Positions 3 through 20,300 of a stretch of 32,000 nt of DNA are shown here, in pieces. The notes beneath the pieces were generated by a model. It was not told where the DNA came from, did no database searches, and saw nothing but the letters and a program-made list of their open reading frames with translations. The translations under genes and the position numbers were made by a program. Numbering within the stretch: position 1 is the first letter of the stretch; each line of letters starts with the position of its first letter. Source of the DNA: Dickeya solani IPO 2222 (lineage in GTDB: Bacteria; Pseudomonadota; Gammaproteobacteria; Enterobacterales; Enterobacteriaceae); the NCBI RefSeq assembly GCF_001644705.1, contig NZ_CP015137.1, positions 1,500,001 to 1,532,000 of the forward strand, written 5' to 3'.

Positions 3-1895
3 TTCTACGTGGTCAACGCGGTGGACATTGCACAACAGCTCGGGCTCGGCGGCCGCTTCAACATGATCATGCAGGCGGCGTTCTTCAAGCTGACCGGGAT
101 CATTCCCGCCGAGACCGCCGCCGACTACCTGAAAAGCGCCGTCACCCATACCTATGGCAAGAAAGGCCAGCACGTGGTGGCGATGAATCAGGCCGCCATC
201 GATCAGGGCATGTTAGCGCCGGTTCAGGTAGCGATTCCGGCGCACTGGGCCGACCTGCCGGAACCGACGGTCTCCGCCGCCGCGCTGCCCGAGTTTATCC
301 GGCGCATTCTGACGCCGATGAACCGGCAGGAAGGCGATAGCTTGCCGGTCAGCGCCTTTACCGGCATGGAAGACGGCACCTTTCCGCTCGGCACCGCGGC
401 GTTTGAGAAACGCGGCATCGCCATCAGCGTGCCTGCCTGGCAGCCGGAAGGCTGCACCCAGTGCAACCAGTGCGCGTTTATCTGCCCGCACGCCGCCATC
501 CGCCCGGCGCTGTTGACCGACGAGGAGCGCGCGCTGGCGCCCGACACCCTGCTCAGCAAACCGGCCACCGGCGCCAAAACCCTGCACTATCATCTGGCGG
601 TGTCGCCGCTGGACTGCTCCGGCTGCGGCAACTGCGTGGATATCTGCCCGTCGCGCGGCAAATCGCTGACCATGCAGCCGCTGACGTCGCAGCAACCCAA
701 AATCGCGCTGTGGGAACAGGTGCTCGGCCTGCAGCCCAAGCCGAACCCGTTCAATAAAACCACCGTCAAGGGCAGCCAGTTCGAGACGCCGCTGCTGGAG
801 TTCTCCGGTGCCTGCGCCGGGTGCGGCGAAACCCCGTACGCCCGGCTGGTGACCCAGTTGTTTGGCGACCGCATGCTGATTGCCAACGCCACCGGCTGTT
901 CCTCCATCTGGGGCGCCAGCGCGCCGTCCATCCCTTATACCGCCAACCACCGCGGACACGGCCCCGCCTGGGCCAACTCGCTGTTTGAGGACAACGCCGA
1001 ATTCGGGCTGGGGATGCTGCTTGGCGGCAACGCCATCCGCGAACAGTTGGCCAGCGACGCCGCGGCGGCGTTGATGCGGCCGCTCAGCCCGGCGCTGACC
1101 GACGCGCTCAATCTGTGGCTGGAGCTGAAAGACCGCGGCGACGGCACCCGCGAGCGGGCCGATCGAGTCATCGCCCTGCTTGAGCATGAAAAAGGCGACG
1201 ACCCGTTGCTCAACCGTCTCTACCAAAACCGGGATTACCTCGCCAAACGTTCGCAATGGATTTTCGGCGGCGACGGCTGGGCTTACGACATTGGCTTCGG
1301 CGGGCTGGACCATGTGCTGGCCTCCGGCGAGGACATTAACGTGCTGGTGTTCGACACCGAGGTCTATTCCAACACCGGCGGCCAGTCGTCCAAATCCACC
1401 CCGGCGGCGGCGATGGCGAAATTCGCCGCCGAAGGCAAGCGCACCCGCAAGAAAGACCTCGGCCTGATGGCGATGAGTTACGGTTACGTGTACGTGGCGC
1501 AGGTAGCGATGGGCGCGGACAAGGCGCAAACGCTACGGGCTATCGCCGAAGCGGAAGCCCACCCCGGCCCGTCGCTGGTCATCGCCTACGCCGCCTGCAT
1601 CAACCACGGACTGAAAGCCGGCATGGGGTGCAGCCAGCGGGAAACCCAAAAGGCGGTGGAGTCGGGATACTGGAACCTGTACCGCTTCAACCCACAACTA
1701 CAGGCGGCAGGCAAAAACCCGTTCACGCTGGACTCCGACGAGCCGGAAGCCGATTTCCAGGACTTCCTGATGGGCGAAGTTCGCTACAGCGCACTGCAAC
1801 GCCAGTACCCGGAGCTGGCAAGCCAACTGTTCGCCAAAACCGAGCAGGACGCCAGGGCGCGTTTCGAGCACTATAAACGTCTGGCGGAAGGGTAA
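3..1895 (+). CDS. nifJ: Pyruvate:ferredoxin/flavodoxin oxidoreductase (PFOR, NifJ/YdbK family), C-terminal ~630 aa; the 5' end lies outside the window
   Basis: The frame is open from the window edge (FYVVNAVDIA...). It has two 4Fe-4S ferredoxin motifs (CTQCNQCAFICP, CSGCGNCVDICP), a TPP-binding motif (GGDGWAYDIGFGGLDHV...DTEVYSNTGGQSSK) and a C-terminal tail typical of enterobacterial YdbK. The stop is TAA at 1893-1895. Confidence 0.93.
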   Translation, partial: FYVVNAVDIAQQLGLGGRFNMIMQAAFFKLTGIIPAETAADYLKSAVTHTYGKKGQHVVAMNQAAIDQGMLAPVQVAIPAHWADLPEPTVSAAALPEFIRRILTPMNRQEGDSLPVSAFTGMEDGTFPLGTAAFEKRGIAISVPAWQPEGCTQCNQCAFICPHAAIRPALLTDEERALAPDTLLSKPATGAKTLHYHLAVSPLDCSGCGNCVDICPSRGKSLTMQPLTSQQPKIALWEQVLGLQPKPNPFNKTTVKGSQFETPLLEFSGACAGCGETPYARLVTQLFGDRMLIANATGCSSIWGASAPSIPYTANHRGHGPAWANSLFEDNAEFGLGMLLGGNAIREQLASDAAAALMRPLSPALTDALNLWLELKDRGDGTRERADRVIALLEHEKGDDPLLNRLYQNRDYLAKRSQWIFGGDGWAYDIGFGGLDHVLASGEDINVLVFDTEVYSNTGGQSSKSTPAAAMAKFAAEGKRTRKKDLGLMAMSYGYVYVAQVAMGADKAQTLRAIAEAEAHPGPSLVIAYAACINHGLKAGMGCSQRETQKAVESGYWNLYRFNPQLQAAGKNPFTLDSDEPEADFQDFLMGEVRYSALQRQYPELASQLFAKTEQDARARFEHYKRLAEG

Positions 1896-1994: not shown

Positions 1995-2711
1995 TCATTC
2001 GGCGAATGTAGCGGAGCAAGCCGTTAACTCCACAACCGTGACATACTGCCGCTCAGGCAATACTCTAAAATAACCACGTGCGGTTTTACCTTTGACAAGC
2101 TGCGGACTCAGTGTCTCTTTTAAGACAAAATCCATACTCTGGTTAACAAAATCAATCTTGAATATTGAAATCGCTTCAAAACCAAAATAGTGACCAACAT
2201 TCCCGTAAGCCGCCTTAAAAAAACTTTCTTTGAGGGAAAAGAATAAGGTAAAACATGCCTGAAACCGCGCAGAGTCAGCCGAAATCAACGCAATTTCATG
2301 CTCATCAAGCGTTTGTGCCAGTACATTGCTAATTACCTCATGGCTGATTTCATCTTCAACATCAATGCCGACACCGATTTTCCCCGTAGCATCGCCGACC
2401 AATGCCACTGCCCGGTTATGACAATGGCTGATCGAGCCGATCATCCCCTCTGGCCAGAGCGGCTCACCACGCTCGCCCCGACCGATATGCCGCACATGAA
2501 TCCCCCATTTTTTTAATGCCTGTGCGGCACAGAAACGACCCGCTAAATACTCAGCGCGCCTTTTGACCACGGCGCGGTCCAAATACCCGGCTTTATCTAT
2601 CTGATATAAATGGAACAAGCTATCGTGATAGTGTTCTCTGGCAAAAATACAATGATAAAGTTCAAAGTCGGTCTCAAACCAATCACCGGACCGATTTTCC
2701 TGAAAAAACAT
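1995..2711 (-). CDS. 4'-phosphopantetheinyl transferase, EntD/Sfp type (activates the PKS carrier proteins)
   Basis: 238 aa with PPTase motifs GSISHC, GIDVE and FSLKESFFKA. An AAGGA RBS lies 8 nt upstream of the ATG at 2711. It is the last gene of the minus-strand operon. Confidence 0.9.
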   Translation of the reverse strand: MFFQENRSGDWFETDFELYHCIFAREHYHDSLFHLYQIDKAGYLDRAVVKRRAEYLAGRFCAAQALKKWGIHVRHIGRGERGEPLWPEGMIGSISHCHNRAVALVGDATGKIGVGIDVEDEISHEVISNVLAQTLDEHEIALISADSARFQACFTLFFSLKESFFKAAYGNVGHYFGFEAISIFKIDFVNQSMDFVLKETLSPQLVKGKTARGYFRVLPERQYVTVVELTACSATFAE

Positions 2712-2762: not shown

Positions 2763-3893
2763 TTATACCGGTTTTAGCTCATCCAGTTCGAAATAGCCGT
2801 TATAACCTTTCAGATAGATCGCCGCACGGTGCTGAAACAGCAAAACAGCTTCTGTCCGGGTCTCCACTTCCGTATTCAAAATACTGGAGCGAACCTTTTG
2901 CCCGATCTGGAACCGGCTGTTCCATTGAGCAACCTTCTGGGCCGCCGCTAGCGTTCTGTTATGCATCGACCCGTCGGTAGATTCAGCAGCATTCGCTCCA
3001 TCGGCGTCACGTTGTAAGCGAATGGCCTGTAGTTCGGCTTCTGTCGTCTCTGCTTTTATTTTCTCGACCAGACTACGCACCACTTCACTATGACCCAATT
3101 CCGTAAATTCAACCGTTCCCAGGCTCATTAGATACTGGATACTTTCGGCCCAGCGAACCGGGCTGGCAATTTGTTGAGCCAGACAGCTAAACAGCGTTTC
3201 ATCCTGATATGGCCGGGCCGTGGTATTGGCAATCACCGGGATTTTCAACGCCGAGAACTGAAAGTTTTGCAGGTATTTTTCAAATTTCTCCATTGAGCCG
3301 CGCATTAGCCTGGAGTGAAAAGCACCACTGGTATTTAAGGGAACATATCTGATGTTGCTATGTTCGAAGTCATCTGCGGCATTCATGATATCGTTACGGG
3401 GACCCGAAATCACAATTTGCGATGGCGTATTAAAGTTAGCTAAATCAATATGATCTAGCCTTTTGGTTTTCAATAATTCCCGCACCTGAGCTTCACTCGC
3501 TCCCAGTACCGCCGCCATACCACCGCCGTCGGCCTGCCCCATCAATTCACCGCGTTTTTTCACCAGCTTCAGACCAGTGGCAAAATCAAAACATTCTGCG
3601 GCCAGCAATGCGTTAAATTCGCCTAAGCTATGGCCTAAAACAAAATCCGGACGGGTGCCGGTTTCTTTCAGTTTCCTGAAATAAGACAGCGCATTGACAA
3701 CATAAATTGCCGGTTGGGTATATTGTGTCCGGTTCAGATTTCCGTCAGGATCATCAAGACAGAGTGTCTCAATGGAATAACCCAGAATCTCGTTGGCAAT
3801 GCGGGTCAAATCAGCAAACTGACCGAACAACCCCTCTCCCATGCCTCGTTGCTGGGAGCCTTGTCCCGGAAACATATAAACTCGAATTGACAT
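2763..3893 (-). CDS. Discrete (trans-acting) acyltransferase, malonyl-CoA:ACP transacylase type, with a ~95-aa C-terminal extension
   Basis: FPGQGSQ, GHS(89)LGE, R114 (KKRGELM) and GAFHS(190-194) form a malonyl-type signature. A GGAG RBS precedes the ATG at 3893. Residues 281-376 lie beyond the AT fold. Confidence 0.9.
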   Translation of the reverse strand: MSIRVYMFPGQGSQQRGMGEGLFGQFADLTRIANEILGYSIETLCLDDPDGNLNRTQYTQPAIYVVNALSYFRKLKETGTRPDFVLGHSLGEFNALLAAECFDFATGLKLVKKRGELMGQADGGGMAAVLGASEAQVRELLKTKRLDHIDLANFNTPSQIVISGPRNDIMNAADDFEHSNIRYVPLNTSGAFHSRLMRGSMEKFEKYLQNFQFSALKIPVIANTTARPYQDETLFSCLAQQIASPVRWAESIQYLMSLGTVEFTELGHSEVVRSLVEKIKAETTEAELQAIRLQRDADGANAAESTDGSMHNRTLAAAQKVAQWNSRFQIGQKVRSSILNTEVETRTEAVLLFQHRAAIYLKGYNGYFELDELKPV

Positions 3894-3961: not shown

Positions 3962-5881
3962 TCACGCCTTCAACTGCGACAACAGAGATTCAAGAGATTT
4001 CATCCCGTCACTGAACTGGTTCAATACATAGCCATGCCGGCAATCAATCCCTTTCGAATACTTCAGAAAGTTGGACAAACTGCCTGTAGCCGATACATCA
4101 ATAAAAAAGTGGTCCTGCATTGCCGTAAACGTCGAGCGGGCAAGGGCAGAAAAGTCAATTTTGTCTCTGACAATCTGCCATAAATACGCGCGAGCATCGG
4201 CTGGTTGTAACGAGCCGACGGACCGCCCCAATACAGACGAATACACGGGAATGGCAGGAGTAAAGACCGGTGTCTTATGCAGCAATTCCTGATATGCAGG
4301 TTTGATAGCGTCAATCGCATCCGAATGGAAGCCGTAGCGAACCGGCAGTGCGATCGACAGAATGCCTTTATCAGCCAGCTTCTGTTTAACGCCTGTTATG
4401 GCGGCGTGATCCCCGGAAATGAAGAAATTATTGTCGAAATTCACGCCGGCCAGCGTACAACGGGAAAAAACATCAGCGCAGCTATAGAAAATTTCCGGTG
4501 AGGCCAGTACCACGACCAAACCACCTTCAGGAGCAGACTGAACCAGCAAACGAGCCTGCTCAACAACCAACCGAAGCGCATCATCCAGCCGAAGCATACC
4601 GGCGACAACGGCAGCAATGTACTCACCCAAACTATGGCCGACAACGGCAGTGGGCTGGATGCCACGGGCAATCAACATCTGAGTCAGGCTGTATCCCAAA
4701 CAAAAGAGTGCCGGATGGGTATAGCGAATATCATCAAACTCAGTCCCGTAATCGCTTTCACCATAGAGTTTTTCCAGCAGATTCACGCCACTGAGCATAT
4801 GCACTTTGTGACACAGGCTGTCCATCGTCTGCCGGAAATGCCCATCACAATGGTAAAAAACCCGTCCCATCTGATAGTACTGACTCCCCTGACCTGCATA
4901 CATGAAAACACACTTATTCGGCGTTGCCGGTGTCGGTCCGATTGACTGATTCTGCATCGGATTGTCTTCCTGAATCGTGGTGGACACCGGAGAGACTAAA
5001 GGCGTAGAGCGCGCGTCGCCGATCGGCATCGGATCGTCGACAATACGCTGATGGAGTTTGGTCAACACCTCTCCGGGGCCGACTTCCATGAAATCATCAT
5101 AGCCTTGAGCCAGCAGCCAGGAGATCGATTCATACCAACGAACCGGATGGGAAATTTGCCGGGTCAACAGTGTCTGATACCCCGTGGAGGGATAAGCCCT
5201 GGCCGTTACATTCGATATAACGGGAACAGACAAGGGATGAAAAGTAAATTCAGCCAGGAAATCGGCAAATTCCCTCTCAATATCCACCATGCAGCGGGAA
5301 TGGAACGCCGCACTGACATTCAATTGGACAAAGCGTGCGCCGGCATCGAGAAAACGCTGTTCCAGCTCCGGCGCCAGCACTTCGTCATAATTCCCCGAGA
5401 TAATGCACTGCTGGCGGGAGTTGATATTGGCTATATCCACATGCTGAAAGCCGCTATCGGCCAAAATACGCTCAATCTCATCCAGATTAATTTCCAGCAA
5501 TGCGGCCATTGCCCCCTTCGGAGCCTGGCTCATCAACTGACCGCGTTTTTGTACCAGCCGAAGCCCGGTAATAAAGTCAAAAGCGCCGGCGGCAAACAGC
5601 GCGTTGTACTCCCCCAGGCTGTGTCCGGCCAGAAAATCCGGCGCCGCCGCTCCACGGGCCTTACGTTCCAGATAGGTCAGCGCATTCACGGTATACAATG
5701 CCGGTTGGGTATACTGAGTGTGGTTTAGAACCCGCTGAGGATCTTTCACACAAAGGTTGGCAATGTCATACCCGAGAACCTGATTTGCCTGAGCAACCAG
5801 CTCTGGATAGTGATCGAATAGGTCATAACCCATCGTACGATATTGCGACCCCTGCCCTGGAAAGGTATAGACTGTCTTCAT
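3962..5881 (-). CDS. Tandem AT-AT protein (two acyltransferase-fold domains; one may be an acyl hydrolase or an alternative-extender AT)
   Basis: 639 aa. Domain 1 has FPGQGSQ, GHS(88)LGEY, R113 and AAFHS. Domain 2 has YAGQGSQYYQMG, GHS(417)LGEY, R444 and YGFHS. Confidence 0.9.
   Translation of the reverse strand: MKTVYTFPGQGSQYRTMGYDLFDHYPELVAQANQVLGYDIANLCVKDPQRVLNHTQYTQPALYTVNALTYLERKARGAAAPDFLAGHSLGEYNALFAAGAFDFITGLRLVQKRGQLMSQAPKGAMAALLEINLDEIERILADSGFQHVDIANINSRQQCIISGNYDEVLAPELEQRFLDAGARFVQLNVSAAFHSRCMVDIEREFADFLAEFTFHPLSVPVISNVTARAYPSTGYQTLLTRQISHPVRWYESISWLLAQGYDDFMEVGPGEVLTKLHQRIVDDPMPIGDARSTPLVSPVSTTIQEDNPMQNQSIGPTPATPNKCVFMYAGQGSQYYQMGRVFYHCDGHFRQTMDSLCHKVHMLSGVNLLEKLYGESDYGTEFDDIRYTHPALFCLGYSLTQMLIARGIQPTAVVGHSLGEYIAAVVAGMLRLDDALRLVVEQARLLVQSAPEGGLVVVLASPEIFYSCADVFSRCTLAGVNFDNNFFISGDHAAITGVKQKLADKGILSIALPVRYGFHSDAIDAIKPAYQELLHKTPVFTPAIPVYSSVLGRSVGSLQPADARAYLWQIVRDKIDFSALARSTFTAMQDHFFIDVSATGSLSNFLKYSKGIDCRHGYVLNQFSDGMKSLESLLSQLKA
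4007..4918 (-). other. AT-like domain 2 of the AT-AT protein (divergent)
   Basis: Residues ~322-625: FMYAGQGSQYYQMG, VVGHSLGEYIAAVVAG, EQARLLV, RYGFHS. It follows a P/T/S-rich linker (residues ~290-322). Confidence 0.75.
5012..5881 (-). other. AT domain 1 of the AT-AT protein (malonyl-type motifs)
   Basis: Residues ~1-290: GHSLGEYNALFAAGAF, QKRGQLM, NVSAAFHS. Confidence 0.8.
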
Positions 5882-5990: not shown

Positions 5991-7454
5991 CTAAGAAGAT
6001 AAAGAGTGGCTTTCTATCAAACTGATTTGTCGTGACAACATCAATGCGGCTTCCTGCATCAACATTTCCCCGATTTCATTGACATGACGAGCACGCCAGC
6101 TTTCATAAGCAGAGCCTTTCACCCACTGATTGAAAGCGCCCAGAGCCGGCCCGCAATGCACCTGATAATCGACTTTGTTTTCCCGATCGCCAGCCAGCGC
6201 CAGGCGCGAGCTATAGGCAAAATACCAGCGAAATACCGCTGCCATTTTACGTTTGGGATGCTCTTCTATTTTCGCCAACACCTGAGGACGGCTCGCCTGA
6301 TAGTATTGCCTGACGTCTTGCCAGACATCGGATAGCGGACGTTTAAAGTACTTGTCTTCGAGCTGCTTTTTAACGACCTGCGGTATCGCTTCCAGCGAAG
6401 CATATTGTTGATAGAGCTGATAAAGTTTATTAGCCCGTGATGGGAAAAACACACCGCGCCGGAGCACCTGAACTTTGGCGCCCTGTTCAAACATATCTCC
6501 GGCCGGAGCATAATCGGTATCCTGAATATTGATACTTTGCAGTAAATCCTTCACCTCATCGCTGGTAGCCGCCTCCACCGAGCACTGATTCACGGAACCG
6601 GTGACAATAAAATCAGCACCAAGCATAAAAGCAGCCATCACCGCTTCCGGCGTACCAATACCACCTGCGGCGCCGATCCTGACTGGTTTTTGGTATCGCT
6701 GGCGGGCCGAAACATCCCGGCAAAGCCGGGAAATGGCCGGGAACAGTACATAAGCATTACCCTGATCGGTGTGGCCTGCCGAATCAGACTCGACACAGAC
6801 ATCCTGAGCCATTGGCACCAAAGGAGCCAGCTCAGCCTCCTGCCCGGTAATCAACCCTTGCTGATATAACCGGGCAACCAGCTCAGGCGGCGCCGGGTGG
6901 GCAAAAACCTCAGCAACTTCGGGGCGTGACACTTTCGCCATCAGCGTATTGGGAATAATAATGCGCTGATCTTCCCCCCGATGAACACCACACAACCGGT
7001 AACGCACTAACGCTGGGGTAATCGCAATATAGGCAGCCGCTTCAATAAAACGAATGCCGTGGGTCAGAAACAGCTCGACCCGCTGCATTTCCTTTTCAGG
7101 GAAATCATAATCTGCCAGCAGATTCATGCCGAAAGACTCCCCGCTCAAATCAGATTGAATCCCTAAAATCGCGTCTTCCAGAACACGAAGACTCAAGCCT
7201 CCTGAACCGAAAAAGCTCATCATTCCGGCCCGCGCCATCGCCACAACCAGCTTACGGGACGCAATCCCCTGATACATCGCACCGCTGACATAGGCATATT
7301 TAATCCCATAATCCTGACGAAACGCCGGACTTCCCAACTGTTCGGCCTGAACACGCTGCTCTTGTCGGCGGTCTACCCCCTGAGGGGGTAGACCTTCACG
7401 GCGTTCAGCCGGCCTCGTTTGTTCAACATGTGTCATCATCGCGCTCTCCCCCAT
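5991..7454 (-). CDS. Trans-acting enoyl reductase, PfaD / FMN-dependent 2-nitropropane-dioxygenase-like family
   Basis: LGSPAFRQDYGIKYAYVSGAMYQGIAS, FFGSGGL and RIGAAGGIGTPEAVMAAFMLGADFIVTGSVNQ are typical of PksE/PfaD-type trans-ERs. The true start may be the ATGATG at 7439/7436, which follows a GGGGGAGAG RBS, rather than 7454. Confidence 0.88.
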   Translation of the reverse strand: MGESAMMTHVEQTRPAERREGLPPQGVDRRQEQRVQAEQLGSPAFRQDYGIKYAYVSGAMYQGIASRKLVVAMARAGMMSFFGSGGLSLRVLEDAILGIQSDLSGESFGMNLLADYDFPEKEMQRVELFLTHGIRFIEAAAYIAITPALVRYRLCGVHRGEDQRIIIPNTLMAKVSRPEVAEVFAHPAPPELVARLYQQGLITGQEAELAPLVPMAQDVCVESDSAGHTDQGNAYVLFPAISRLCRDVSARQRYQKPVRIGAAGGIGTPEAVMAAFMLGADFIVTGSVNQCSVEAATSDEVKDLLQSINIQDTDYAPAGDMFEQGAKVQVLRRGVFFPSRANKLYQLYQQYASLEAIPQVVKKQLEDKYFKRPLSDVWQDVRQYYQASRPQVLAKIEEHPKRKMAAVFRWYFAYSSRLALAGDRENKVDYQVHCGPALGAFNQWVKGSAYESWRARHVNEIGEMLMQEAALMLSRQISLIESHSLSS

Positions 7455-7463
7455 TTAGTCTGT

Positions 7464-8291
7464 TCAGAAAGCGTCGCCTTTCATATCAAAGGGGGGATAA
7501 GCAGGAAAATCTGTCGTCGAAGGGTACTTACTGAAAGTCATCACCTCACGACCATTTGTCAAAACGGTATTGCTGCCACGTAATTCAAACTCATAACTCA
7601 CGTAACTTTGCCCTTCGCCCCAGAGTTTGCTGTGAGTTCTGGTATTAAACGTCGTTCGCAGACGGTCTGGAGATATCACCGCCATCTCATTCGACTCATA
7701 ATTAATAATGATCTCTCTCGGTTTATTGAAATCACTGGTCACCAGAATGTTATAGCTCCCGTAATACATCTGGTTCAGCGGTGTCGCCGTTTCACCGCTA
7801 TGGTTACCGGCCAGAGGAATTCCATTACTATCAAGTACCGAAATGTAGAAACCGCCGTCACGGGCAATCCAGCCTTCGGAGGGTAAGATAGTCCCGGCCA
7901 GCGAATACAGCCGATAATGGCCATCCGGGTTGCCGGTATATGTTTTCAGCTCAATACGTTTTTGAGCCAAGAGCGCCTCAACATCAATACCGAATTCGCG
8001 ATTAAAATAAGCAATCGCCTCTTCTCTTTTTTGTGCTAATTCACTCTCATTCAGCCCCATAATATGGGTGTAGAAATAATCACTGCTGCATAACGTTCCC
8101 TGACACCCGGATATGCCGGGGAATGGTTCAGTATTCGCAATATTGAGCGAGCCGGTCCCCATAAAAACCAGTACCTGCTTAAATCCCATGGGCTTAGGTA
8201 AACGCTCGCCGGCGTGCGCATTAAATGTCATCAAGGCCATAGAGAAAACGGCGATGGCAGCGGCTTTTCGTTTAAATTTATGTAACATCAT
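7464..8291 (-). CDS. Secreted/periplasmic protein of unknown function (Sec signal peptide, no recognised domain)
   Basis: The N-terminus MMLHKFKRKAAAIAVFSMALMTFNAHA|GE has a K/R n-region, a hydrophobic core and an AHA signal-peptidase I site, with no lipobox. A Cys pair (GCQGTLCS) sits near the mature N-terminus. A GGAG RBS lies 8 nt upstream. The gene is packed tightly between the PKS and the ER (gaps of 81 and 9 bp). Confidence 0.7.
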   Translation of the reverse strand: MMLHKFKRKAAAIAVFSMALMTFNAHAGERLPKPMGFKQVLVFMGTGSLNIANTEPFPGISGCQGTLCSSDYFYTHIMGLNESELAQKREEAIAYFNREFGIDVEALLAQKRIELKTYTGNPDGHYRLYSLAGTILPSEGWIARDGGFYISVLDSNGIPLAGNHSGETATPLNQMYYGSYNILVTSDFNKPREIIINYESNEMAVISPDRLRTTFNTRTHSKLWGEGQSYVSYEFELRGSNTVLTNGREVMTFSKYPSTTDFPAYPPFDMKGDAF

Positions 8292-8317
8292 AGATATGCT
8301 CCTTGTTGTTTTTCACT

Positions 8318-8352
8318 GATAACCGGCAAGCCGGTTATCGATGGTTTTTTCG
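8318..8352 (+). terminator. Near-perfect 10-bp inverted repeat plus T-tract; terminator-like on the + strand only, which is antisense to the operon
   Basis: GATAACCGGC-aa-GCCGGTTATC (8318-8339) is followed on the + strand by GATGGTTTTTTCG. On the sense (minus) RNA the same hairpin is flanked by A-rich sequence. Confidence 0.35.
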
Positions 8353-8372: not shown

Positions 8373-11300
8373 TTAAACATCCAAGACCGTCAAGGTCGAT
8401 ATATCCTCTGGCGACAAACGTTCCGCCAGCATTGTTGGGACAGGAATTTCATCCACTGTCAGTTCTGGCTGTTCCACCATCATGTCCAGTAAGACCAGCA
8501 CGTGGTCGGCAAGCATTTGGATCACGTCCGGTGAAAAATAACTACGGTCATACATAAACGGCAGGCTCAGCTTTCCGTGGGTTTTCAGCAAACCAATCAG
8601 CAATGGTGCGACAGGCTCCCTTTCTTCCAGCGACATGGGTAGCAATCTTTGGGCGAAAGTCGTCACCTCGACAAAGGTATCCCGGTCATTACTGTCAATA
8701 GAAAGGCTGCCCAACAGGGTATGGTCGTGGGCATCCAGCCCTTCAGGGGCGAGTTGCTGATGCAGTGCAACAAAATCAAAGTGCTTATATTTCTGTACTT
8801 GCAACAATGCTTCGTCATAAATGCGCCACACTTGCCGCAGGCTGAAATGAGCGTGCAGCGTTAACACCAGCGGAACCGATGAAGAGAAGTCACCGTAAAC
8901 CGGTTCAAATTCATATCGATCCCTGAGGTTATATGCCATCTGAATCGGCATATTTTCTCCGGTGATCCGATACATTAACGTCGCCAGAGCACAGGTAACG
9001 AGTTGTGTGAGCGTGGTATTTTGGCGACGATTTGATGACTGCAACCGATTAAGCATCTCATCAGAGATATCCAGAGAATAGGCACCCGCTTTTTCCGGCT
9101 TCCCATGCTGTTTATCCGGGCTTCTGCTCAGTGCGATCTGTTTATCCCGTAGCGTAAAAGACGTTCGTTTGTCATGTAATTTGCTCAACCAATATCGGGT
9201 CGCTATCTCCTGATGTTCCCCGAACTGACTCAAGGCAAAATGTGCATATTCAGCCGGCGGTTTGGGGCAATAAAAATCGATGCCGTTGCGCAGTGCTTCA
9301 TAGCGGTGATAGAGCTCTTGCAGAAACATGAACAAAGTAAAACCATCGGCATGGAAATGGTGCGTAACAAAGTAAACGGCCCCCAGATCGGCACCGTTAT
9401 GGGCAAGATACAGCTCAAACATCGGCATCCGATCCGCTTGAAACAACTGCGCATTGACTGATTTCTGAAAACCCGCGAATGTCTGTTCAAACGTTTCTCT
9501 GTCAGAAATATAAGGCCAACAGACTTCCCTGCATTCCAGTATTAAGGCGTCATGAACAACCTGTGCCCATTGTTGACCCACGAATTCAGCACCGGTTCTC
9601 AGAATTGCGTGGTGGCGGACCATATCGTTCAGCGCCTGATTCAGCAATGACAGGTCAACCGGCATATCTATCCAAAAGCCCTGGCCGATATTAAAGGTAG
9701 AGCGCTTTTTCACCTCGGTCTCATGCAGAATAAATGCCTGAATATGGCTGACCGGATAGTAGCGAACCCCCGTCTCTAAACACGACCATAAGCAATCTGG
9801 CCGCTTCACGCGATCAAGCGCATCCCCGGCACGCAGAGCGTTTCGGTAGAACTCAAAACGAAAACCTGTCGCTTCTTTCCAGACGCCGATTCCCTGCTGT
9901 AATAGCAGGCTTAATTCAGTACGGCCCAACGTCATATCCTCGACAGGCGCTGCCGCCAAAGGTAAAGCCAGCGAGACCGACTGAATAAACGCCGGGCGAT
10001 TCTCCGGCATAGCATTGAGGGACACGTGCTCCGACGCCGACGCTGTGGCGAGCGGATAATACGTAGAGAGCGAGGAATCGTGAGCGGTATTTCGTGGACG
10101 ATGGGCAATAACCCAGGCAATCTCCCCGGCAATCAACCGAAGCGATTCTTTCGTCAGCAGATGGGCATCAAACTCAGTAACAAAAGCTGAATTGATCCTG
10201 TTTAGCAGACGTAGTCCCAACAGTGAATCGATACCGTAGCGGGTTACCGGTTCATCCAGATCAATTTCGGCGACAGACAAGCCGGCCAGCTCCGCCAGCA
10301 TACCTGTCAGTTGTTGCGCCAGTTGTTGCGGTACTTCTGCCTGTTGTGATGCTGCCTGTTGCTTCGTTTGGAAATCGGTTGCCTCTTGGCGTAATGCCCC
10401 GGCAGGTCCCTTCCGGACGGCACCGGCCCAGCACAGACGTTTGTCAAAAGGATACCCCGGCAGCGATAACGGGAATTTTTCCGCCGGAGAATAGGCCTGA
10501 TCCATACGGATTTCAGCGCTGAAGTCAGGAGAAAAAAAGTCGACCCCATTGGCATATAACCGGGCCAGAGCCAACAGATTATCGCGGTTTGTCGGAGCGT
10601 GAACCGCCTGACGAACATGTGCAACAGCGGACGAAGCCTCGTTCCCGGCTAATAACTGACGGCCCGAGCTGACTTTACCCTGATAGCCGTTGTCCTCCTG
10701 AGTCAATGCTGCCCCGGCTATCACCTTATCCAGAAAAGAGTGCAATGCATTGGCGTCGGAAACCACACAGGCACACCGATATGAGAAATGACTACGGCGC
10801 AATAATAGGTTTGCTGACAGTTGTTTCAGATCCAACCCATGCTGAGCCCGCATAAAATCTTGCAGATCCCGACAGCGTTGCTGCAAAGCGCGCTCACTCT
10901 TTCCAGACAGCACAATAAACACCGGCGGTTCACCACCGTGCGCCGGTGACTCTCCCTGTAGCGATGATGCGTTCGAAGAGATATTTTCTGGAGACCACTC
11001 TCGTCCCTCCCGATTTTTGTGAGGTTCAGCCACAACAAGGTGAACATTGATCCCCGTCGCCCCTAACGAGCTGATCGCCGCCCGGCGAACCTGTCCAGAG
11101 TCGACCGTCCAGGGAACGGTTTTCGAATTGATATAAAATGGACTTTGTTCCAGCGGTAGCAAAGAGGTCCGGTCTTCCGTATTCGGCGTTCCGGGAATGG
11201 TCCGATGCCGGAGCGCTAACAGCACTTTGAATAGATGATTCATCCCCGCACTGTGGAAAGCATGGCCGATGTTGTTCTCAACGCTCCCCAGCGCACAGAA

Positions 11301-14300
11301 TGGCTGCCTGCCTGATTGAACCAGCCCACCATTCTGCCGAAAGACGTTTGTCAGCGATTCAACTTCTGCGGCATCCGCGGCAGGCATCCCGGCGGCATGG
11401 GCTTCGACCAGAGTGATACTCTGCGGGCGGATATCAAACCGCTGGTATATATCAGATAACAGTTCTTCCTGAGCGCTGGCGCTCGGAGCCATAATCCCAT
11501 TGGTTTTACCGTTGTGATTACTGCCCCAGGCTTCGATCACACCATGAATTCTGTCGCCATCTGCCAGCGCCTGCTGCAATGGTTTTAGAATAACCACGCC
11601 AACAGACTCTCCGGGCATCATGCCAGTGGCATGTGCCGAAAACGCACAGCCACGGTCAGCCGGAGACAACAGTCCGAGACGGGAAGAACTGAGCAACATA
11701 TTCGGTGTGGAATAAATCAGGGCCCCGCCTGCAATCGCCACCTCACACTGGCCCAACACCAGCTGATCACAAGCCTGTGCAACAGCCAACAGCGAAGAAG
11801 CACAACCTGCCTCTACCGTCAGACAAGGCCCTTTCAGGTTCAGGCTGTAAGAGACCCGTCCGGGTACCTGAGACAAGGTAATATTCGGAGCGAAATGCTC
11901 TCCCTCGGCAAAACGTAGCGTATAGTCTCCCCCACTCCCACAGAAAACCCCCCAACGCTTGCCGGACAACGTCTCTGGAATAATCCCCGCATCTTCAATG
12001 GCTTTCCAACTTTCCTGTAAAAACAGGCGCTCACAGGGGTCTAACATTGATGCTTCATGCGGCGATATCTGAAAAAATAGCGGATCGAAATGTTCGACAT
12101 CAGAGAGAAAACCGCCATAGCCGGCATATTCACCATAATTCCCCGGGCTAACTGACCACCCGCGACTCTCCGGTGGCGCGGTAAACGCTGATTGCCCCTG
12201 TTCGAGCAGATGCCAGAAGTCATCGGGATTTTTCGCCCCGGGAAACTGCCCGGACATGCCGATAATCGCGATATGATCTCGGCCCTCCTTACGCGGCTGC
12301 GCTGCCCGTTTCCCGCTTTCACCCGGTGTGGTTTTCCCGGCAGACTTGCCCCGGTAAACCGCCCGACAGCGCTCAGAAATCATTTCAACGCTCTCGCGTT
12401 CAGACAAGAGATGAAAATGATCCCTGGCTTTGGTACGAAATACCTGAGCCCCCGGTAAATAGTGTAGCCATCGCTGACAATGGCTTTCATCGTGAGTCAG
12501 TTCTTCACCCAGAACATGACGATTATTTTCAGCCAGCGCAGACAACTTGCCTTGGTTCTCCGGTCTGTCATCGTATGATGATGTAATCGTCACATAGTGC
12601 AGGTCAATATCATGGGCATTCGGTAACGCGTTCACCGAATAGGCAGCCATAGCTTCGCGGTTGTGTTTAAGGATTTGAGCCATATTCTCAATTTTGTCCT
12701 TCACAACCGATAACGGCTGCTGCACTCCTTTTTTCAGGCACCCTTCAGCCAGCCATGTCACTTGTTTATCTACATCAACACGCATTAATTCCTGTTCGGT
12801 GTAGGCGATCGTGTCAAACGCTATCTGACCTGATGCCAACGCTTCACTCATGCTGTAGTGCAAAAAGAAGTTCGCACTCATCAGTAATGCATCTCGATAA
12901 TAAAACGGTGACGACGCGTGGTTATCCGGCTGCGGAAACGGGGGTTCCAGCAGAATCAGACTCGACACGCTGAACCCTGCCAGTTGCAGCTGTCTGGCCA
13001 TTTCATAGGCAATGATGCCGCCCATTGAATACCCTGCCAGCTCGTATGGCCCGGTCGCATTACTGGCTTGAATGATTTCAATATAGTAACGCGCCATGCT
13101 TTCGATGCTTTCCAGCGGCTGAAACCGGGTAAGAAATCCACGCGACTGAATTCCCCAGATGGCATATTCATCTGCCAGATTTTCAGCAATCTTCAGATAC
13201 AAACCCGTCGAGCCGGTCAGCGGATGAATCCAGAACCGTGAACTTTCAGGCGTCTGTTCATCTTTAATGTGTCTGTCCCGCAGTGGTTTGCTAAGAGGAA
13301 TGCACTCTGGATAGTGTCTCAGCCACGCTCTTTCCGGGCGCTGGCTTTGCAGTCCGGCTATTGTGTTGTCGGATGTCGCCTGCGAATCATCGGCCTCTTT
13401 TTTATCGCCTGTTTCGTGAGCGATAACCGACGCTGCCGCAAATGCGTTTCCCTGCCGGTTGATCGGCGAGGGCGGCATATGGTTGCCAAGATATAAAGAC
13501 AGCGCATCAATACTTGGGTAATCAAAAATGGCGTTGATCGTTAGCCCAGATGCAAACGCCCGGTTAACGGCTTCAATAAAGCCAACCGCATTGATTGAAT
13601 TGAGCCCCAGTTCGGTAAACAGTTGATGGTTCTCGATTTCACTCTCTTCAAAATACAGCGTTTGCATCAGTAAAGAGCGAACCTGACGGGTGATGGCGTC
13701 AAGCTGTGATGTGCCGCTTTTATTCACCGCAGCATCACCCGAAATCACAGCCTTTTTCTCACCAGTAACCGTAGACCGGCTGGTTACCTGGGTCTGAGCC
13801 GTTACCTCGGCAGGTGGAAGATTGGCCCAGTAACGTTTGCCCTGAAAAGGGTAGACCGGCAGACTTATCCGTTGCGGTACTCTCTGCCGCGGTACTCTCT
13901 GTTTCGGTACTATCTGTTTCGGTACTATCTGTTTCGGTACTATCTGTTGCAGCGAGAATGTCTCACGGTATAAATCAAACCAATCCACATTGACGCCGTT
14001 AACCCATGCATCCGCCAGTTCCTGCCATTGTTCCGCGGCGATCCATCCCTGAATCTGGGCAATCTGAGCCGGAGAGTTCTCCTCATCCCATTCATTCTCT
14101 CTTGCCGACCCGGTTACCTCATCGCTGCGTGGTTCGCCATGATAATACGCACCGGGAGCAATATCGCCGCGAATGAACAACGCTAATTTGTCACGCAGCT
14201 CCGTAGTATCAGACACCACAAAAGCCACTCGTTTTGCCATCGCATCTCGCCCGGTTTGCAGGCTATAGGCCAGTTGATCAAGCCGCGTTGCCGGGTGACG

Positions 14301-17300
14301 CTGCAGGAATTGCACAAAGGCCTGAGCATAGGCTTGCAGCGCTGCGGTGGTTTTCGCCGAAATAGGGACGAGCGACGGGCGTGCGGCGATGCCCAACGGA
14401 CGCCGGGCGCCCTCTTTCGGCGGATAGCTATCCGTTCCTGTTAAAGATTCGGGGTCATCGGCAATGTATTCTTCAATCACCGCATGAGCATTGGTGCCGC
14501 TGATCCCCGTCGCGCTGATTGCGCCAAGCCTGGGCTGCTTGCCCTGACGCAACCAAGGTTGATTCTGTTGGTGAATCGTAAAGGGAGTCCGCTCTAATTT
14601 AATGTAGCGGTTACAGGTATCAAATCTATGGGTTGCCGGAATCGTCTGATGAGCCATCGCCTTGAGCATGGCAATGAGGCTCACGACACCGGAAGCGGCA
14701 AAAGTATGCCCAATTAAGGGTTTAATCGAGCCTAAAACACAGCGATGCGAATCGCTGCATCGGCCGGCAAAGGCATCGGTGAGCGCCTGAACCTCAATCG
14801 GGTCACCCAACTGAGAACCGGTGCTGTGGGAAATCACATAGTGAATATTTCCCGGGTCAATCCGGTATCGGTCATAAATATTTTTCAGCAGTTCAGCCTG
14901 GCGAACCGGGTTCGGCGCCGTGATGCCATTGGTTTTTCCATCGTAGTTCACCCCGCTGGCTTTGATGCAGCCATAGATTCGATCGCCATCGGCTTTGGCT
15001 TTTGACAACGGTTTGAGTAAGACTACTGCGACAGCTTCTCCCAGAACCAGCCCATTTGCGCGTTGATCAAACACGCTGGCCTTGCCGTCGGGAGAAAGCA
15101 TTCCCGTCCGGTTCATACTCTGGTACACCCACGGAGTCATCAACAGATTGATTCCTCCGGCCAGCGCCATCTCACAATCCCCCTGACGCAGCGCCAGACA
15201 CGCCTGATGAACAGCAACTAACCCTGATGCACAAGCGGCTGTGAGGGCCATATTCGGGCCTTTCAGATCCAGCGCATAAGAAATACGCGCTGCCAGGGTC
15301 GCATTTTGATTACCGTTTATCGACCCCTGATCGCCGACAATAGCGCCATAATCACTCTCTTCCGCGCCGACATACACACCACAGGACATTCCCCGGATGC
15401 GTTGCCCCATATAGCCGGCATCCTCAAACGTGTGCCAGGCTTCCTGCAGGAAAATGCGCTGCCTGGGGTCCATATCCATCGCGTCTTTTGGCGCAATATC
15501 AAAAAATGCGGCGTCAAATTGCATGATATCCGTCATGAAAGCGCCCCATTGCGGGAGCGTTTCATGCTTATCCCGATCTTCTGACGATCCAGACGGCATG
15601 CTATCGGTGACAGACTGCCAGTCCCAGCGCGGTCCTGACATCTCACCAATACAACTTTCTCCCTGAATCAGTTTCTCCCAGAAGTCATCAATATTATCCG
15701 CCTGCGGAAAACGCCCGCTCATCCCAATCACGGCAATCGGCTCATCCATGACGTCTGAAGCAACCGTGTTGGTTGCCGCAGGAGCCGACTGATGATTCTC
15801 CGTGGTTGTCTTCATCTGCCCGAGCTCGTGGCCCGACGTTGGATTGACGTCTTCCCGCTCGACAGTCAGGTGATTGCTGTCAACTAGCGGGGACATGCTG
15901 ACGGTGTCCGTCTCCGGCGACACCTGACGCGAAAACATGGCATCTAAAGCCTGTGCATGTTCACGACAAAAATATTCCGTCAGCCGTTTAACCGATGAGT
16001 GACCGAAGAGCACAGCAGGCGTGATTTCAACATCAAAATATTTACTCAACTCCCGGGAAAATGATGCCAGCGAGATCGAGTCAAAACCAAAATCAGCAAA
16101 ACTGCTATTCAACCCGATCCGGTCAACCGGCGTGCCCAGTAACCGGCTAATCTGCGTTTTCAGGACGTTACTCACTTCTGTCCGCATGCCTGTCGCATCG
16201 GCGGGCAGCGGTGCACTATGCCCTCCGGAACGCGATGCCGTCTCATGGTCGTGTTTTTGCCCCGCATCACGGATAGCCGCTTGATTGGCGATATCTCCCT
16301 TGCCGCTTACCGGATGATGTTCGGTACGTCCGGCTACCGGCTGTTCTTTCAGCCCCAGAAACCGGGCAACACGACTGGGTTTTCCGGCCATCACCAGATG
16401 TTGCCCTTCGCTTTGCCGCAGCAGTTGTTCAAACACCAGCAACCCTTCTTCGCTTTCAAGGGCGCGTTGGCCACTGGACCTGAGATAAAATTCGGCGCTA
16501 TCCCTGTCACGGATGCCCATTTTCCCTTCTTTCCAGAAAGGCCAGTTAATAATCAGTGTTTTACCACGAAGTTTGCCTTGTTGAACCTGCGCCATCCGGT
16601 GTTTGCCATACCCCATCTGGAAACGGTTCCCCATGGCGTAATCACAAGAGCCAAAATCGCCTAAGAACGCGGCGCTGGAGGAAAAATAACAGACAAAATC
16701 CAACGGGTCCTGCATCAGCAGTTCGTCTAATAATTGCGTCCCTTCAACTTTCGGCCGAAGAATATCTTTGAACGCCTGGCGGGACTTCTCAAATACCGGT
16801 TCACTGGCTTCCAACCCGGCGGTGTGGATAACACCGAGGATCGGCCCCATCAATTGTCTGGCCTGTACCAGATTGAAACGCATGGCGCCGACATCGCAGA
16901 CATCGGCCTGGATATAATGTACCTGCCCCCCCAATTGGGTCAGTTCATCAGCAATCGCTTTGCGGTCTGTATCCATCGCTGAACGCCCGGTCAGTATCAG
17001 CCTGGCTGAATACTGCTGTGCCAGATATCGGGCAAAAATTAATCCCAGCCCACCGAATCCGCCGGTGATCAGGTAGGTTCCTCCTTGTTTAATCCCTGCC
17101 TCTGCCACCGCTGGCTCGGCCAGAGAAACCGGACTGGGTTGAACTTTCAGGATGTATCGCTCGGTGCCTTCATAGCAGACACTTTCGAAATGTTGCCCCG
17201 TCAGCTCCTGATAAAGTATTGATACATAATGTTTAGTGAAAACCGATTGTTTAGTGAAGACCGACTGTTTAGTGAAAACCGGCTGCCCGGTAAACGTCGC

Positions 17301-20300
17301 TTGTTCTCCGACCATACCGGATCCCGGAGCAACACTAACGGCAACCGCACATTGGGTTTTAGGTAATACGGAGGTCAGGGAACGTTCGATACCAATCCAT
17401 GACTCCAGATAAGCACGCTCCAGCGAATGGTGGCTGACACCAGCCAGCAGTAAGCGAGCCGGAGCCATGTTTGTCGCAACCATAGAAGACAACAGCACAT
17501 GTAGCGCGGCGAAGTCTTGTATCTGACCACGCGCCTCCAGTGGCCATAGATATAAAATCGCACTGTGTTGAGGTTGTATCCCGGCAGATTTCAACTGTGC
17601 AAAACAGTGCTGATAACTTTCGGTGTTTTCCTGCGTTGTATCTTGTTGTGGCAGATGAAAACCGCTCACCCCCTCTTCCAGCGCAAGGCGGGATACGAAC
17701 ACAATCGCTGTCTGTGGCGCCAACGCTTTCATCTGAGATTGCAGCAAACGCTGACTTTCCGGCTCCGACAAAAAGCAGATCAAGGTTTTAAACCCATGAT
17801 CTTGCGGGGATGTTGCCGGATGAGGCATCTTCTGCCAGGACTCGGTAAACAACATCAGCGCTTCACGCTCTTCTTGATGCGCTGATTCCGAAGTCAATGC
17901 AGTAGGGGATGATGTATCGGCAGGTGAGGTATCACGAGCAATCCGGCCCAGATCTTCCGGCGCCTGAATCCAATGCCTCTCTCTGGCAAACGGATAACCT
18001 GGCAGGCTGATACGACAGGGCGTCGCTATCGGGTATAGCTGATACCAGTCCACATGAAAGCCTTCCGTCCAGAACCGGGCAATCTTGTGAACGGCATTTT
18101 GTTCTACCCAGCGATGAAGCAGAGCGGTGCTGTCATCTGCTGACATAAATCCCGTATCCCGGCCACTTTCCCTACCGCCACCGCCACGCCAGCAGCGCTC
18201 AGGTAAGACGTCATCCTCGGCAAATGCGACCAGTTTTTTCTGTAACTCCCTGAGATCCTGTACGACAAAAACCACCCGCTCTTCCAGAACCCGCCGTCCA
18301 ACTTGCAGCGTGAAAGCCAGATCCGCAGGATGAATGCCGTCGATATCCGGGTGAGTCTCCAGGAACTGTGCCAGATTTCGGGCCATAACCCGAAGCCGCT
18401 CTTCATTTTTTGCCGATAAAGGGACAATTTTTGCCGATAAAGGAACGTCTTTCGCCGATAAAGAGGCAACCAGCGGCGTATTGTGCCGTTGACTGTTCTC
18501 CGATCTCCGGGAGAGGTGTGGCAGAAACTCTTCAACAATCAGGTGTGCATTCGACCCGGTGGCGCCAAACGAGCTGATCCCCGCCCGCCGCGGGACGTTG
18601 ATCTTTTCGCCTTCTTCGCCCACCGTCGGTTGCTCCCAAGCCTGGGTTTCACGCTGAATATAGAAAGGCGAATTATCCAGTTCCAGGTAAGGGTTAACCT
18701 GCTCTGAATGTAACAGTGAAGGAACCAGTGTCTTATGATGCAACTGGAGAATAACTTTGCTTAGCCCACTGATACCCGCCGCCGACTCAGCATGGCCGAT
18801 GTTCGATTTAACCGAACCGATCGCGCAAAACTGTTGGTCTTTCGTGTGTTGTCTGAAGGCTTTCACCAATCCCTGAACTTCGATCGGATCGCCCAGCGCC
18901 GTCCCCGTACCGTGCGCTTCGATATAACTGATGGTTCGTGGGTCAATTCCGGTTTTTTCGTAGCAACGCAACATCAAATCAGCCTGTGCAACCGGGCTTG
19001 GTACCGTAATCCCGCTCACTTGCCCAACGTGGTTGATGGTGCTGCCCTTGATTACCGCATAAATATTGTCCCGATCCTTAACCGCCTGCGACAGCGGTTT
19101 GAGCAATACAGCCCCCACCCCTTCGCCAGAGACAAAGCCATTGCCGCCGTCACCGAAAGTTCGGCAACGACCATCGGTGGAATACATATCGGCCAGCCCA
19201 TAAGTCATATACTTATAGGGATGCAACGACAGGTTTACCCCGCCGGCTAATGCAATTTTACTTTCTCCTCTGTGCAGACTTTCCAGAGCCAGATGCAACG
19301 CGGTCAGGGATGAAGAGCACACCGTATCTACGGCAAAAGAAGGGCCGTGGAAACCGCAGAAATAAGAGACTCGGTTAGCAATGGGGGCATAATTCATCGA
19401 TAGCGGCATTACCTGACCGCGATTGACGATTTCAGACGCGATCAAGGCGTAATCATTATGCATTACCCCAACAAAAACACCGACATCACGGCGCTTATTA
19501 AGCCCCTGTTCTGCAACCAGCGTCTCCGGGGTGTAGCCCGCATCTTCGATTGCCGCCCAGCATGTTTCCAGAAATAATCGTTCCTGAGGATCTAACCACT
19601 GCGCTTCTCTGGGAGAAACCCGGAAAAACTGTGCGTCAAAACAGTCCACATCCTCGATAAATCCCCCCCATTGAGGAATCGGTCGGCCAGAAGGCGACGT
19701 AATGCCATCCAGCACGCTTTTCTGCCATCTCGACCCAGGAATTTCGGTCACACAGTCCTTACCGGCTTTGAGATTCTCCCAAAACTCAGCCATATGTTTC
19801 GCACCGGGATAGCGCCCTGACATCCCGATCACCGCAATATCTTCGCTTTCCGATGCGTTCTGTATGATTGATGATGAATGGGAAGCGGCCTGCCTGGCGT
19901 TTATCGGCTCACTACCGGCCTGATTGATGCCTGCTGAAATGCCCGAATCCGGTAACGTACCCGATGCCAACTGATGCGCGTTGTCCCGTTCTGTGACCGT
20001 TGCAACATCAGGCGCCATGTCGGCAAGCGACCTGAACGATTCCGGGTACCGTTCCAGCAGATACTCGGCCAGTGCACCGACGGTGGCATATTCAAACAGT
20101 AAAGTCGGATTCAGCTTTACCTTGAGCGACTGTTCCAGTGACTGCACCATTTGCAACAGTCCCGCCGAATCCAACCCCAACTCGTAATAACCGATATCGC
20201 TCTCGATCTCTTCCGTGCTTTTCGCCAACGTATCGGCAAGTATCTTTTTCAGAATATTTTCAGCACGTTCCAATGCTGAATCATTCTCATCCGACGATAT

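Follow-up and report, generated by a model that had tools for sequence, protein, structure and literature searches.

The window analyzed here is a 32,000-nucleotide stretch of Dickeya solani IPO 2222 (contig NZ_CP015137.1, positions 1,500,001 to 1,532,000). On its minus strand lies a gene that sequence comparison identifies as oocT, at the 3' end of the trans-acyltransferase (trans-AT) polyketide synthase (PKS) cluster for oocydin A (ooc; haterumalide NA). As a locus, oocT is already known as a gene of a well-studied cluster. By orthology and position it is the same gene as that encoding OocT of Serratia plymuthica A153 and of the Dickeya ooc clusters described by Matilla et al. (2012, 2015), and nothing substantive distinguishes them. 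In the accessible literature on OocT, the 2015 paper, we found no mention of the export of OocT, its family, its fold or its wider distribution. Likewise without earlier mention there are the close relatives that head coronafacic acid (CFA)-type and halogenase cassettes, and the loss of a family cysteine in three halogenase- or haloperoxidase-type clusters. An initial annotation of the window had not recognized the locus as part of the published oocydin A cluster; the family to which OocT belongs has no described member.

The gene order oocS-oocT-oocU-oocV-oocW (Table 1) is kept in D. oryzae (locus L004), a Serratia sp. (L005), S. marcescens MSU97 (L006) and a metagenome contig (L026). Together with the window these form a non-exhaustive sample of ooc clusters, and oocT is present in all five; co-occurrence with the PKS, which the initial annotation had asked about, was thus found in every homologous cluster examined. 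S. marcescens MSU97 is a published oocydin producer (PMC5334600). Its ortholog is 72% identical to OocT and occupies the same position, flanked in order by oocS, oocU, oocV and oocW. Identity to OocT is 96% in D. chrysanthemi, 79–89% in D. dianthicola, D. oryzae, other Dickeya and Musicola paradisiaca, and 72–73% in Serratia. In comparisons of the window with the four orthologous loci, the ratio of nonsynonymous to synonymous divergence (dN/dS) is 0.08–0.14 for oocT, 0.08–0.18 for oocU, oocV and oocW, and 0.17–0.28 for the C-terminus of oocS. By evolutionary criteria oocT is functional and under purifying selection comparable to that on its neighbors. Against D. oryzae, dS of oocT reaches 0.68 versus 0.26–0.30 for oocU, oocV, oocW and oocS, at similar dN/dS; recombination or different codon constraints could account for the raised value.

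The genes from oocS to oocU are co-oriented and tightly packed, and in Serratia the genes oocJ to oocW, oocT included, are reported as a single transcriptional unit (PMC4552970). The co-transcription with biosynthetic genes proposed initially is supported by this arrangement; the ribosome-binding site AAGGAG and the 81-nucleotide spacer between the oocS stop codon and oocT are confirmed. The gap of 9 nucleotides to oocU holds for the first oocU ATG, and becomes about 24 nucleotides if the start proposed below is the real one. The longer spacer contains a stem-loop about 25–45 nucleotides upstream of the oocT start. The mRNA strand has no U-tract here, and the scan scored the site as terminator-like on the plus strand, where TTTTTT follows. 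Hairpins occur at the equivalent place in D. oryzae and Serratia (L004, L005, L006 and L026, ~9940..9975), with differing stems (ATAACCGGC/GCCGGTTAT, ATAACTA/TAGTTAT and GGCTAAC/GTTAGCC). At the sequence level this looks like compensatory change across Dickeya and Serratia, and the hairpin may be an element of RNA processing, stability or attenuation.

Table 1. oocT, its features and the neighboring genes, in coordinates of the window (aa, amino acids)
Feature	Position	Strand	Remarks
oocT coding sequence	7464..8291	-	275 aa, ATG to TGA; 72-96% identity to Dickeya/Musicola/Serratia hypothetical proteins; between oocS and oocU
Predicted Sec/signal peptidase I signal peptide MMLHKFKRKAAAIAVFSMALMTFNAHA, codons 1-27, predicted cut before G28 (then GER)	8211..8291	-	n/h/c regions, A-x-A; conserved in orthologs
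C63-QGTL-C68 pair, codons 63-68	8088..8105	-	only two Cys of OocT; invariant in orthologs
Shine-Dalgarno sequence AAGGAG	8299..8304	-	7 nucleotides 5' of oocT ATG
Stem-loop in the 81-nucleotide oocS-oocT spacer	8317..8340	-	perfect 9-bp core ATAACCGGC/GCCGGTTAT; 10 pairs in scan
oocS, last PKS, 5641 aa, with thioesterase (TE) and nonribosomal peptide synthetase-type condensation (C) domains at end	8373..25298	-	C-terminal 900 aa 63-85% identical to orthologous loci; domain description from PMC4552970 and PMC11260071
Upstream PKS open reading frame, probably oocR, running beyond the window	25291..31971	-	name inferred from published gene order
oocU, PksE-type trans-enoyl reductase (trans-ER), 487 aa	5991..7454	-	assignment from PMC4552970; probable real start 7439
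oocV, tandem acyltransferase (AT-AT)	3962..5881	-	Pfam Acyl_transf_1 x2; synteny
oocW, free-standing acyltransferase	2763..3893	-	Pfam Acyl_transf_1; synteny
Sfp-type phosphopantetheinyl transferase (PPTase), downstream of oocW	1995..2711	-	Pfam 4PPT_N + ACPS
Pyruvate:ferredoxin oxidoreductase tail	9..1895	+	flanking housekeeping gene

Export, family and predicted fold of OocT

The N-terminus of OocT was read by rule. Basic residues K5, K7, R8 and K9 form the n-region and precede a 14-residue hydrophobic core (A10–F23) with an 11-residue Kyte-Doolittle mean of up to 2.3; the predicted cleavage site, N-A-H-A27|G28, has alanine at -3 and -1. A lipobox cysteine and a twin-arginine motif are absent from this segment. 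Judged from its sequence, OocT therefore has what a Sec/signal peptidase I substrate should have: a positive n-region, an h-region of 7–15 residues and small residues at -3 and -1. Across all seven ortholog clusters this segment is conserved, and the hydropathy reading gave no further hydrophobic segment in OocT. The signal peptide with an AHA|G site and the CxxxxC pair near the mature N-terminus, both noted at the outset, have held up.

An exhaustive search of 1.84 billion representative sequences with a hidden Markov model (HMM) of the ortholog profile recovered 196 proteins at E≤1e-3, of which 117 also pass E≤1e-10; their lengths are mostly 240–290 amino acids. An N-terminal hydrophobic stretch is present in 119 of the 136 members of at least 200 amino acids, and export is therefore a family trait. 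Searches with OocT alone and with the eight-sequence alignment gave no Pfam or NCBIfam match even at E≤10, among them none to a β-lactamase or S12 peptidase, and 94 aligned family members gave none against Pfam-A at E≤0.01. By phmmer no PDB sequence was significant (best E 0.19), and the family profile drew only chance-level matches to calicivirus P-domains (E 0.6) from the PDB sequences. The initial view of OocT as a protein of unknown family with no recognized catalytic motif and no resemblance to ClbP agrees with these results. UniRef labels the Pseudoalteromonas rubra homologs as DUF2291; we rejected this assignment, as P0008, P0157, P0158 and P0160 had no Pfam match at E≤10. One family member (P0019) is a tandem duplication. 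The only domain fusions found join members to DUF6008 or CHRD domains and are uninformative on function.

Among the 94 aligned members, G140 and G227 are invariant, whereas R127, D145, G146, Y180, R248, T252 and F253 are each present in 84–90 (~90%). At a further position, which corresponds to residue 217 of OocT, 85 of the 103 aligned sequences carry cysteine; the residue is threonine in the OocT clade, serine in Pseudoalteromonas and phenylalanine in Nostoc. The CxxxxC pair is retained in 46 of the 103, and is therefore a subfamily feature.

AlphaFold supplied with the eight orthologs only gave an unusable model, with a predicted local distance difference test (pLDDT) score of 44.5, and the 94-member family alignment was needed to reach a pLDDT of 91.9 and a predicted template modeling score (pTM) of 0.84. 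The resulting model consists of the signal helix, an N-terminal β unit (residues 37–50), a disulfide turn, three helices (72–109) that include a long one at 82–100, and about nine long strands between residues 113 and 254 that are rich in charged residues. Thus the mature part is β-rich, as proposed initially, for its C-terminal two thirds, and helical at 72–109. C63 and C68, in a tight β turn of the model, probably form a structural disulfide.

The check by AlphaFold and Foldseek that the initial annotation called for returned no PDB counterpart at E≤1e-3. The best E value was 4.6e-3, and TM-scores did not exceed 0.27 when normalized to the query (TMq) or 0.41 when normalized to the target (TMt); BFVD gave no match. 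At the sensitivity of Foldseek, the modeled fold is without a close solved counterpart. Most of the top 50 matches, all weak, belong to the SRPBCC/START/Bet v1/PYL group, with ~80–90 residues aligned. The best of them, 3put_A, has an E value of 4.6e-3, with a TMq of 0.19 and a TMt of 0.32 over 92 aligned columns. Isolated weak matches fall among calycin-like β barrels, a group that also takes in the lipocalins; they are to the dirigent protein AtDIR6 (TMq 0.27, TMt 0.41, E 0.09) and the PloI4 cyclase (TMt 0.27–0.29). Membership in SRPBCC (START, Bet v1, CoxG, PYL) is not supported, the TM-scores of at most 0.32 being below the criterion of ~0.5. OocT and the helix-grip proteins (SRPBCC, START, Bet v1, PYR-PYL) share the idea of a β sheet packed on a long helix with a hydrophobic pocket; OocT differs from them in being ~100 residues larger and exported, and sequence identity is 7–19%. 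The model at most hints at a ligand pocket of this sheet-on-helix kind.

The signal peptide, the long meandering strands and a C-terminal Phe would also suit an outer-membrane β-barrel or a surface protein for export, and Foldseek returned a few outer-membrane barrels. The probabilities of those matches are low (0.08–0.2), residues 72–109 are helical, and the strands are rich in charge. Moreover, the C-terminal Phe and alternating hydrophobic residues are not conserved, orthologs ending in SF, AF, EF, SR or AH. We regard a barrel as very improbable and rejected it on the nonconserved C-termini and the helical segment.

Genomic contexts of OocT relatives

The nearest relatives of OocT outside ooc clusters are 33–48% identical to it, and in seven loci the gene lies directly upstream of a CFA-type operon. 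Four of these loci come from genomes (L007, L008, L010, L011) and three from metagenomes (L028, L029, L030). The carriers are Pseudomonadales, Cellvibrionaceae, Methylococcaceae and Nitrosomonas metagenome-assembled genomes (MAGs) plus the three metagenome contigs, within the Gamma- and Betaproteobacteria. The operon encodes, in order, a small acyl carrier protein (ACP), a 4HBT thioesterase, a FabZ/AmcE-like protein, an AmcF-like ketosynthase, a 180-residue protein at the amcG/cfa4 position, an AmcH-like adenylating ligase, a Lipocalin_5 protein and an NmrA-type reductase. An upstream AraC regulator and a downstream DoxX protein accompany the operon in L007 (9797..18101) and L008, and L019 and L020 carry a rearranged variant. 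NCBIfam scores for the cassette proteins point to machinery of the cispentacin/coronafacic acid, type II PKS-like kind and stay below equivalog cut-offs. They are orphan 'CFA-type' cassettes as PMC10698177 uses the term; such cassettes are widespread and their products unknown (PMC10698177).

The relatives linked to CFA-type cassettes resemble OocT over the full length in carrying the signal peptide, the CxxxxC pair and R127, D145, Y180 and R248, and in sharing an operon with carrier-protein-dependent enzymes. Unlike OocT, which has Thr at position 217, they keep the cysteine, and their partner is a type II PKS-like five-membered-ring cassette rather than a trans-AT PKS. Between lineages the cassette proteins are 37–70% identical and the cassette-linked OocT-like proteins 43–58%, and from this low identity it follows that the linkage is old.

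More distant relatives occur in other biosynthetic cassettes, a finding that favors a link to secondary metabolism. A Pseudoalteromonas homolog (36% identity) belongs to a cassette of P. ardens R96 (L009, 2882..11202), which is found in the same form in L003. The cassette encodes an α/β hydrolase, an adenylation (A) domain, a peptidyl carrier protein (PCP), a chlorinating enzyme, a second PCP, a TE, a GNAT protein, an AstE/aspartoacylase-like protein and the OocT-like protein, followed by a cupin. The chlorinating enzyme is of the SyrB2/CmaB type (TIGR01762, 452 bits against a cut-off of 226). We take the layout to resemble the CmaA-T set of coronamic acid biosynthesis, and we know of no product for it. 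A weakly WelO5-like protein is encoded upstream of this cassette. On a Nostoc plasmid, a homolog of 28% identity has an A-T-TE protein on one side and an AurF-like diiron oxygenase on the other, and a DUF6851/VCPO-like RTX protein is encoded next to the latter.

In these three informative cases (ooc, Pseudoalteromonas and Nostoc), loss of Cys217 coincides with a halogenase- or haloperoxidase-like cluster. Among the other members that lack the cysteine, no halogenase lies near P0054 or P0094, and the contigs of P0029 and P0046 are too short to judge. At N=3 the association is anecdotal and may be due to chance.

Other contexts differ. In an Anaerolineae MAG and on a haloarchaeal plasmid, merA/merR and thioredoxin-fold genes adjoin family members. 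Distant members from Chloroflexota MAGs and the haloarchaeal plasmid lie within a few kilobases of merA/merR and/or WCPDC thioredoxin-like proteins (L013 5012..9593, L002 2572..4083, L012 14389..15660). Taken with the conserved free cysteine, the mer/WCPDC neighborhood might reflect a thiol- or metal-related ancestral role. The association with carrier-protein pathways is strong in the subfamily close to OocT and does not extend to the whole family.

A second secreted family without a Pfam match (~290–360 amino acids) was also seen beside OocT-like genes, at L023 5579..8305 and L019 13048..15124. The two contexts differ, and in the former two paralogs of the OocT family flank the gene for this second protein.

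Possible roles of OocT

In the description by Matilla et al. (2015), OocT appears with OocP and OocQ as a hypothetical protein encoded in the third ooc transcriptional unit (PMC4552970). In S. plymuthica A153, an in-frame deletion of oocT leaves bioactivity against Verticillium and Pythium like that of the wild type; deletion of oocK, oocM, oocO or oocP abolishes activity, and deletion of oocQ leaves very little (PMC4552970). Because wild-type bioactivity is kept, OocT is not a core biosynthetic enzyme. Chlorination and offloading have been assigned to cytoplasmic, assembly-line enzymes, the former to an OocP/OocQ heterodimer and the latter, a macrolactonization, to the ACP-C didomain of OocS (PMC11260071). 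With these steps allotted to other Ooc proteins, no biosynthetic step appears left for OocT. To our knowledge, the remaining known steps of oocydin biosynthesis are also carried out by cytoplasmic, assembly-line enzymes.

The initial annotation proposed an immunity, binding or tailoring component and named the lack of a deletion phenotype as an outcome that would count against this proposal. The published deletion shows just that for bioactivity. The contexts of distant relatives favor the link to secondary metabolism. The wild-type-like deletion speaks against a step of prodrug maturation or tailoring that is essential. Overall, the observation is confirmed, and its interpretation is partly supported and weakened by the published null phenotype. 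Like ClbP and CarF/CarG, OocT is by prediction extracytoplasmic and is encoded within an antibiotic cluster. The Pfam and NCBIfam searches gave no evidence of a likeness to CarF or CarG. It differs from ClbP-type proteins in having neither a match to the S12/β-lactamase fold nor C-terminal transmembrane helices. Loss of ClbP blocks maturation, whereas deletion of oocT leaves activity intact.

We prefer, tentatively and at somewhat less than an even chance, an accessory role for OocT in the periplasm, in which it would bind or handle the finished metabolite and so serve its transit or sequestration. OocT would be exported and cut at AHA|G, and the mature protein of ~248 residues would fold in the periplasm, stabilized there by the C63–C68 disulfide. 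It would then act as a nonessential handler of a finished, lipophilic carboxylic-acid metabolite. The ligand would be held in the putative pocket of the model, formed by the long β sheet and the helical hairpin and lined by the family-conserved R127, R144/D145, Y180/N181 and R248. Binding would make it easier to move or sequester the metabolite between the inner and outer membranes and would involve no obligatory chemical step. A binder is preferred because OocT is dispensable for the active compound, because no chemical step appears unassigned, and because the only structural echoes are of hydrophobic-ligand binders. It is preferred over an enzyme since matches to catalytic families are absent, and since OocT lacks the best-conserved cysteine of its family yet retains the Arg/Asp/Tyr set.

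That set bears on a competing view, in which OocT would be an enzyme that tailors or matures the exported polyketide in the periplasm and uses the conserved Arg, Asp and Tyr for catalysis, for example in hydrolyzing or forming esters to give haterumalide congeners or in removing a pro-group. The 94 diverse members hardly vary at R127, D145, Y180, R248 and T252, as might suit an active site, and operon linkage to biosynthetic enzymes recurs in several pathways. Natural oocydin congeners that such an enzyme could produce do exist (PMC11260071). However, the Pfam, NCBIfam and PDB profile searches found no hydrolase, oxidoreductase or transferase signature, the cysteine best conserved in the family is missing from OocT, halogenation and offloading belong to other enzymes, and the oocT mutant is as active as the wild type. 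We consider a tailoring function unlikely.

Several observations weigh against the handling role that we prefer. Both the pocket and the binding of a ligand are putative. The structural matches are poor, with a best E of 4.6e-3, SRPBCC TM-scores of at most 0.32 and ~80–90 aligned residues. The near-invariant polar residues R127, D145, Y180 and R248 could equally mark an active site, and the phenotype of the deletion would fit just as well if OocT had no part in oocydin biology whatever. In addition, the family has nonbiosynthetic contexts, in which members are found with RdgC and a histidine kinase, with GDSL lipases, with merA/merR or among housekeeping genes.

These last points suit the view that OocT is a periplasmic protein tied to the envelope or to lipids, with a function unrelated to oocydin, either a passenger of the island or a protein with another host role in thiol, redox or lipid handling. 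Such a protein would be expected to show no bioactivity phenotype on deletion (PMC4552970), and to have relatives in heterogeneous contexts near mer genes, redoxins and lipases. The dS of oocT against D. oryzae (0.68 versus 0.26–0.30) further hints at a partly separate history. What makes this view improbable to us is the operon position, strictly conserved from Dickeya to Serratia, a dN/dS like that of essential genes, and the recurrence of linkage to biosynthetic cassettes in several independent lineages.

Self-protection is another function that would combine export with cluster linkage, the classic pattern of immunity proteins; OocT would then act in the envelope of the producer by sequestering or neutralizing either the product or some reactive by-product. 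Unaffected production in the mutant is what this predicts where the test organism is a fungus (PMC4552970). Yet the same mutant is viable and fully active, and oocydin A, described as antifungal, anti-oomycete and antitumor, is not described as antibacterial, which leaves no obvious target in the producer (PMC4552970). The relatives beside CFA-type cassettes probably handle chemically unrelated products, which again fits poorly with immunity. Oocydin A acts on oomycetes and fungi and is not known to act on bacteria, and classical self-immunity is less compelling for this reason; we judge it quite unlikely.

Extending the handling role beyond ooc, we can imagine, though we find it doubtful, that the OocT family is an unrecognized exported class with a new fold, coupled to carrier-protein-dependent pathways (trans-AT PKS, CFA-type type II PKS-like systems and CmaA-T-like halogenase cassettes) whose products its members would bind, mature or hand on in the periplasm. 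The free cysteine of the ancestral form could then have captured electrophilic products of the cyclopentenone type, and forms without it, such as OocT, could have been recruited to pathways with halogenated products.

For the oocydin pathway itself oocT is of little consequence, since the gene is catalogued and its loss leaves bioactivity unchanged. OocT does offer a genetically tractable entry to an undescribed exported family, as deletions exist in S. plymuthica and Dickeya. The family recurs beside orphan biosynthetic cassettes, including the widespread CFA-type ones (PMC10698177), and is a reasonable target for work on the extracytoplasmic steps of Gram-negative natural-product pathways. 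If members do handle products in the periplasm, the family would be a useful genome-mining marker and would supply models of Gram-negative metabolite export with an extracytoplasmic step that they lack.

Neighboring genes and the island border

Alignments of oocU orthologs begin at residues 5–7, and GGGGAGAG lies just before an ATG-ATG at codons 6–7. For these two reasons the real start of oocU is probably codon 6, at window position 7439, rather than the first ATG at 7454, and this start is what widens the gap from oocT to oocU to ~24 nucleotides.

The pyruvate:ferredoxin oxidoreductase gene has a G+C content of 64.6% (83% at third codon positions), compared with 46–53% for the ooc genes and the PPTase gene. 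This sharp break in composition, with a border near 1900–2000, fits a horizontally acquired island, and horizontal acquisition of the ooc cluster has been described (PMC4552970). In D. oryzae the match to the PPTase (L004 15624..15856) is limited to its first 78 residues and falls in two overlapping segments in different frames. Judging from this sequence, the D. oryzae gene may be frameshifted or truncated.

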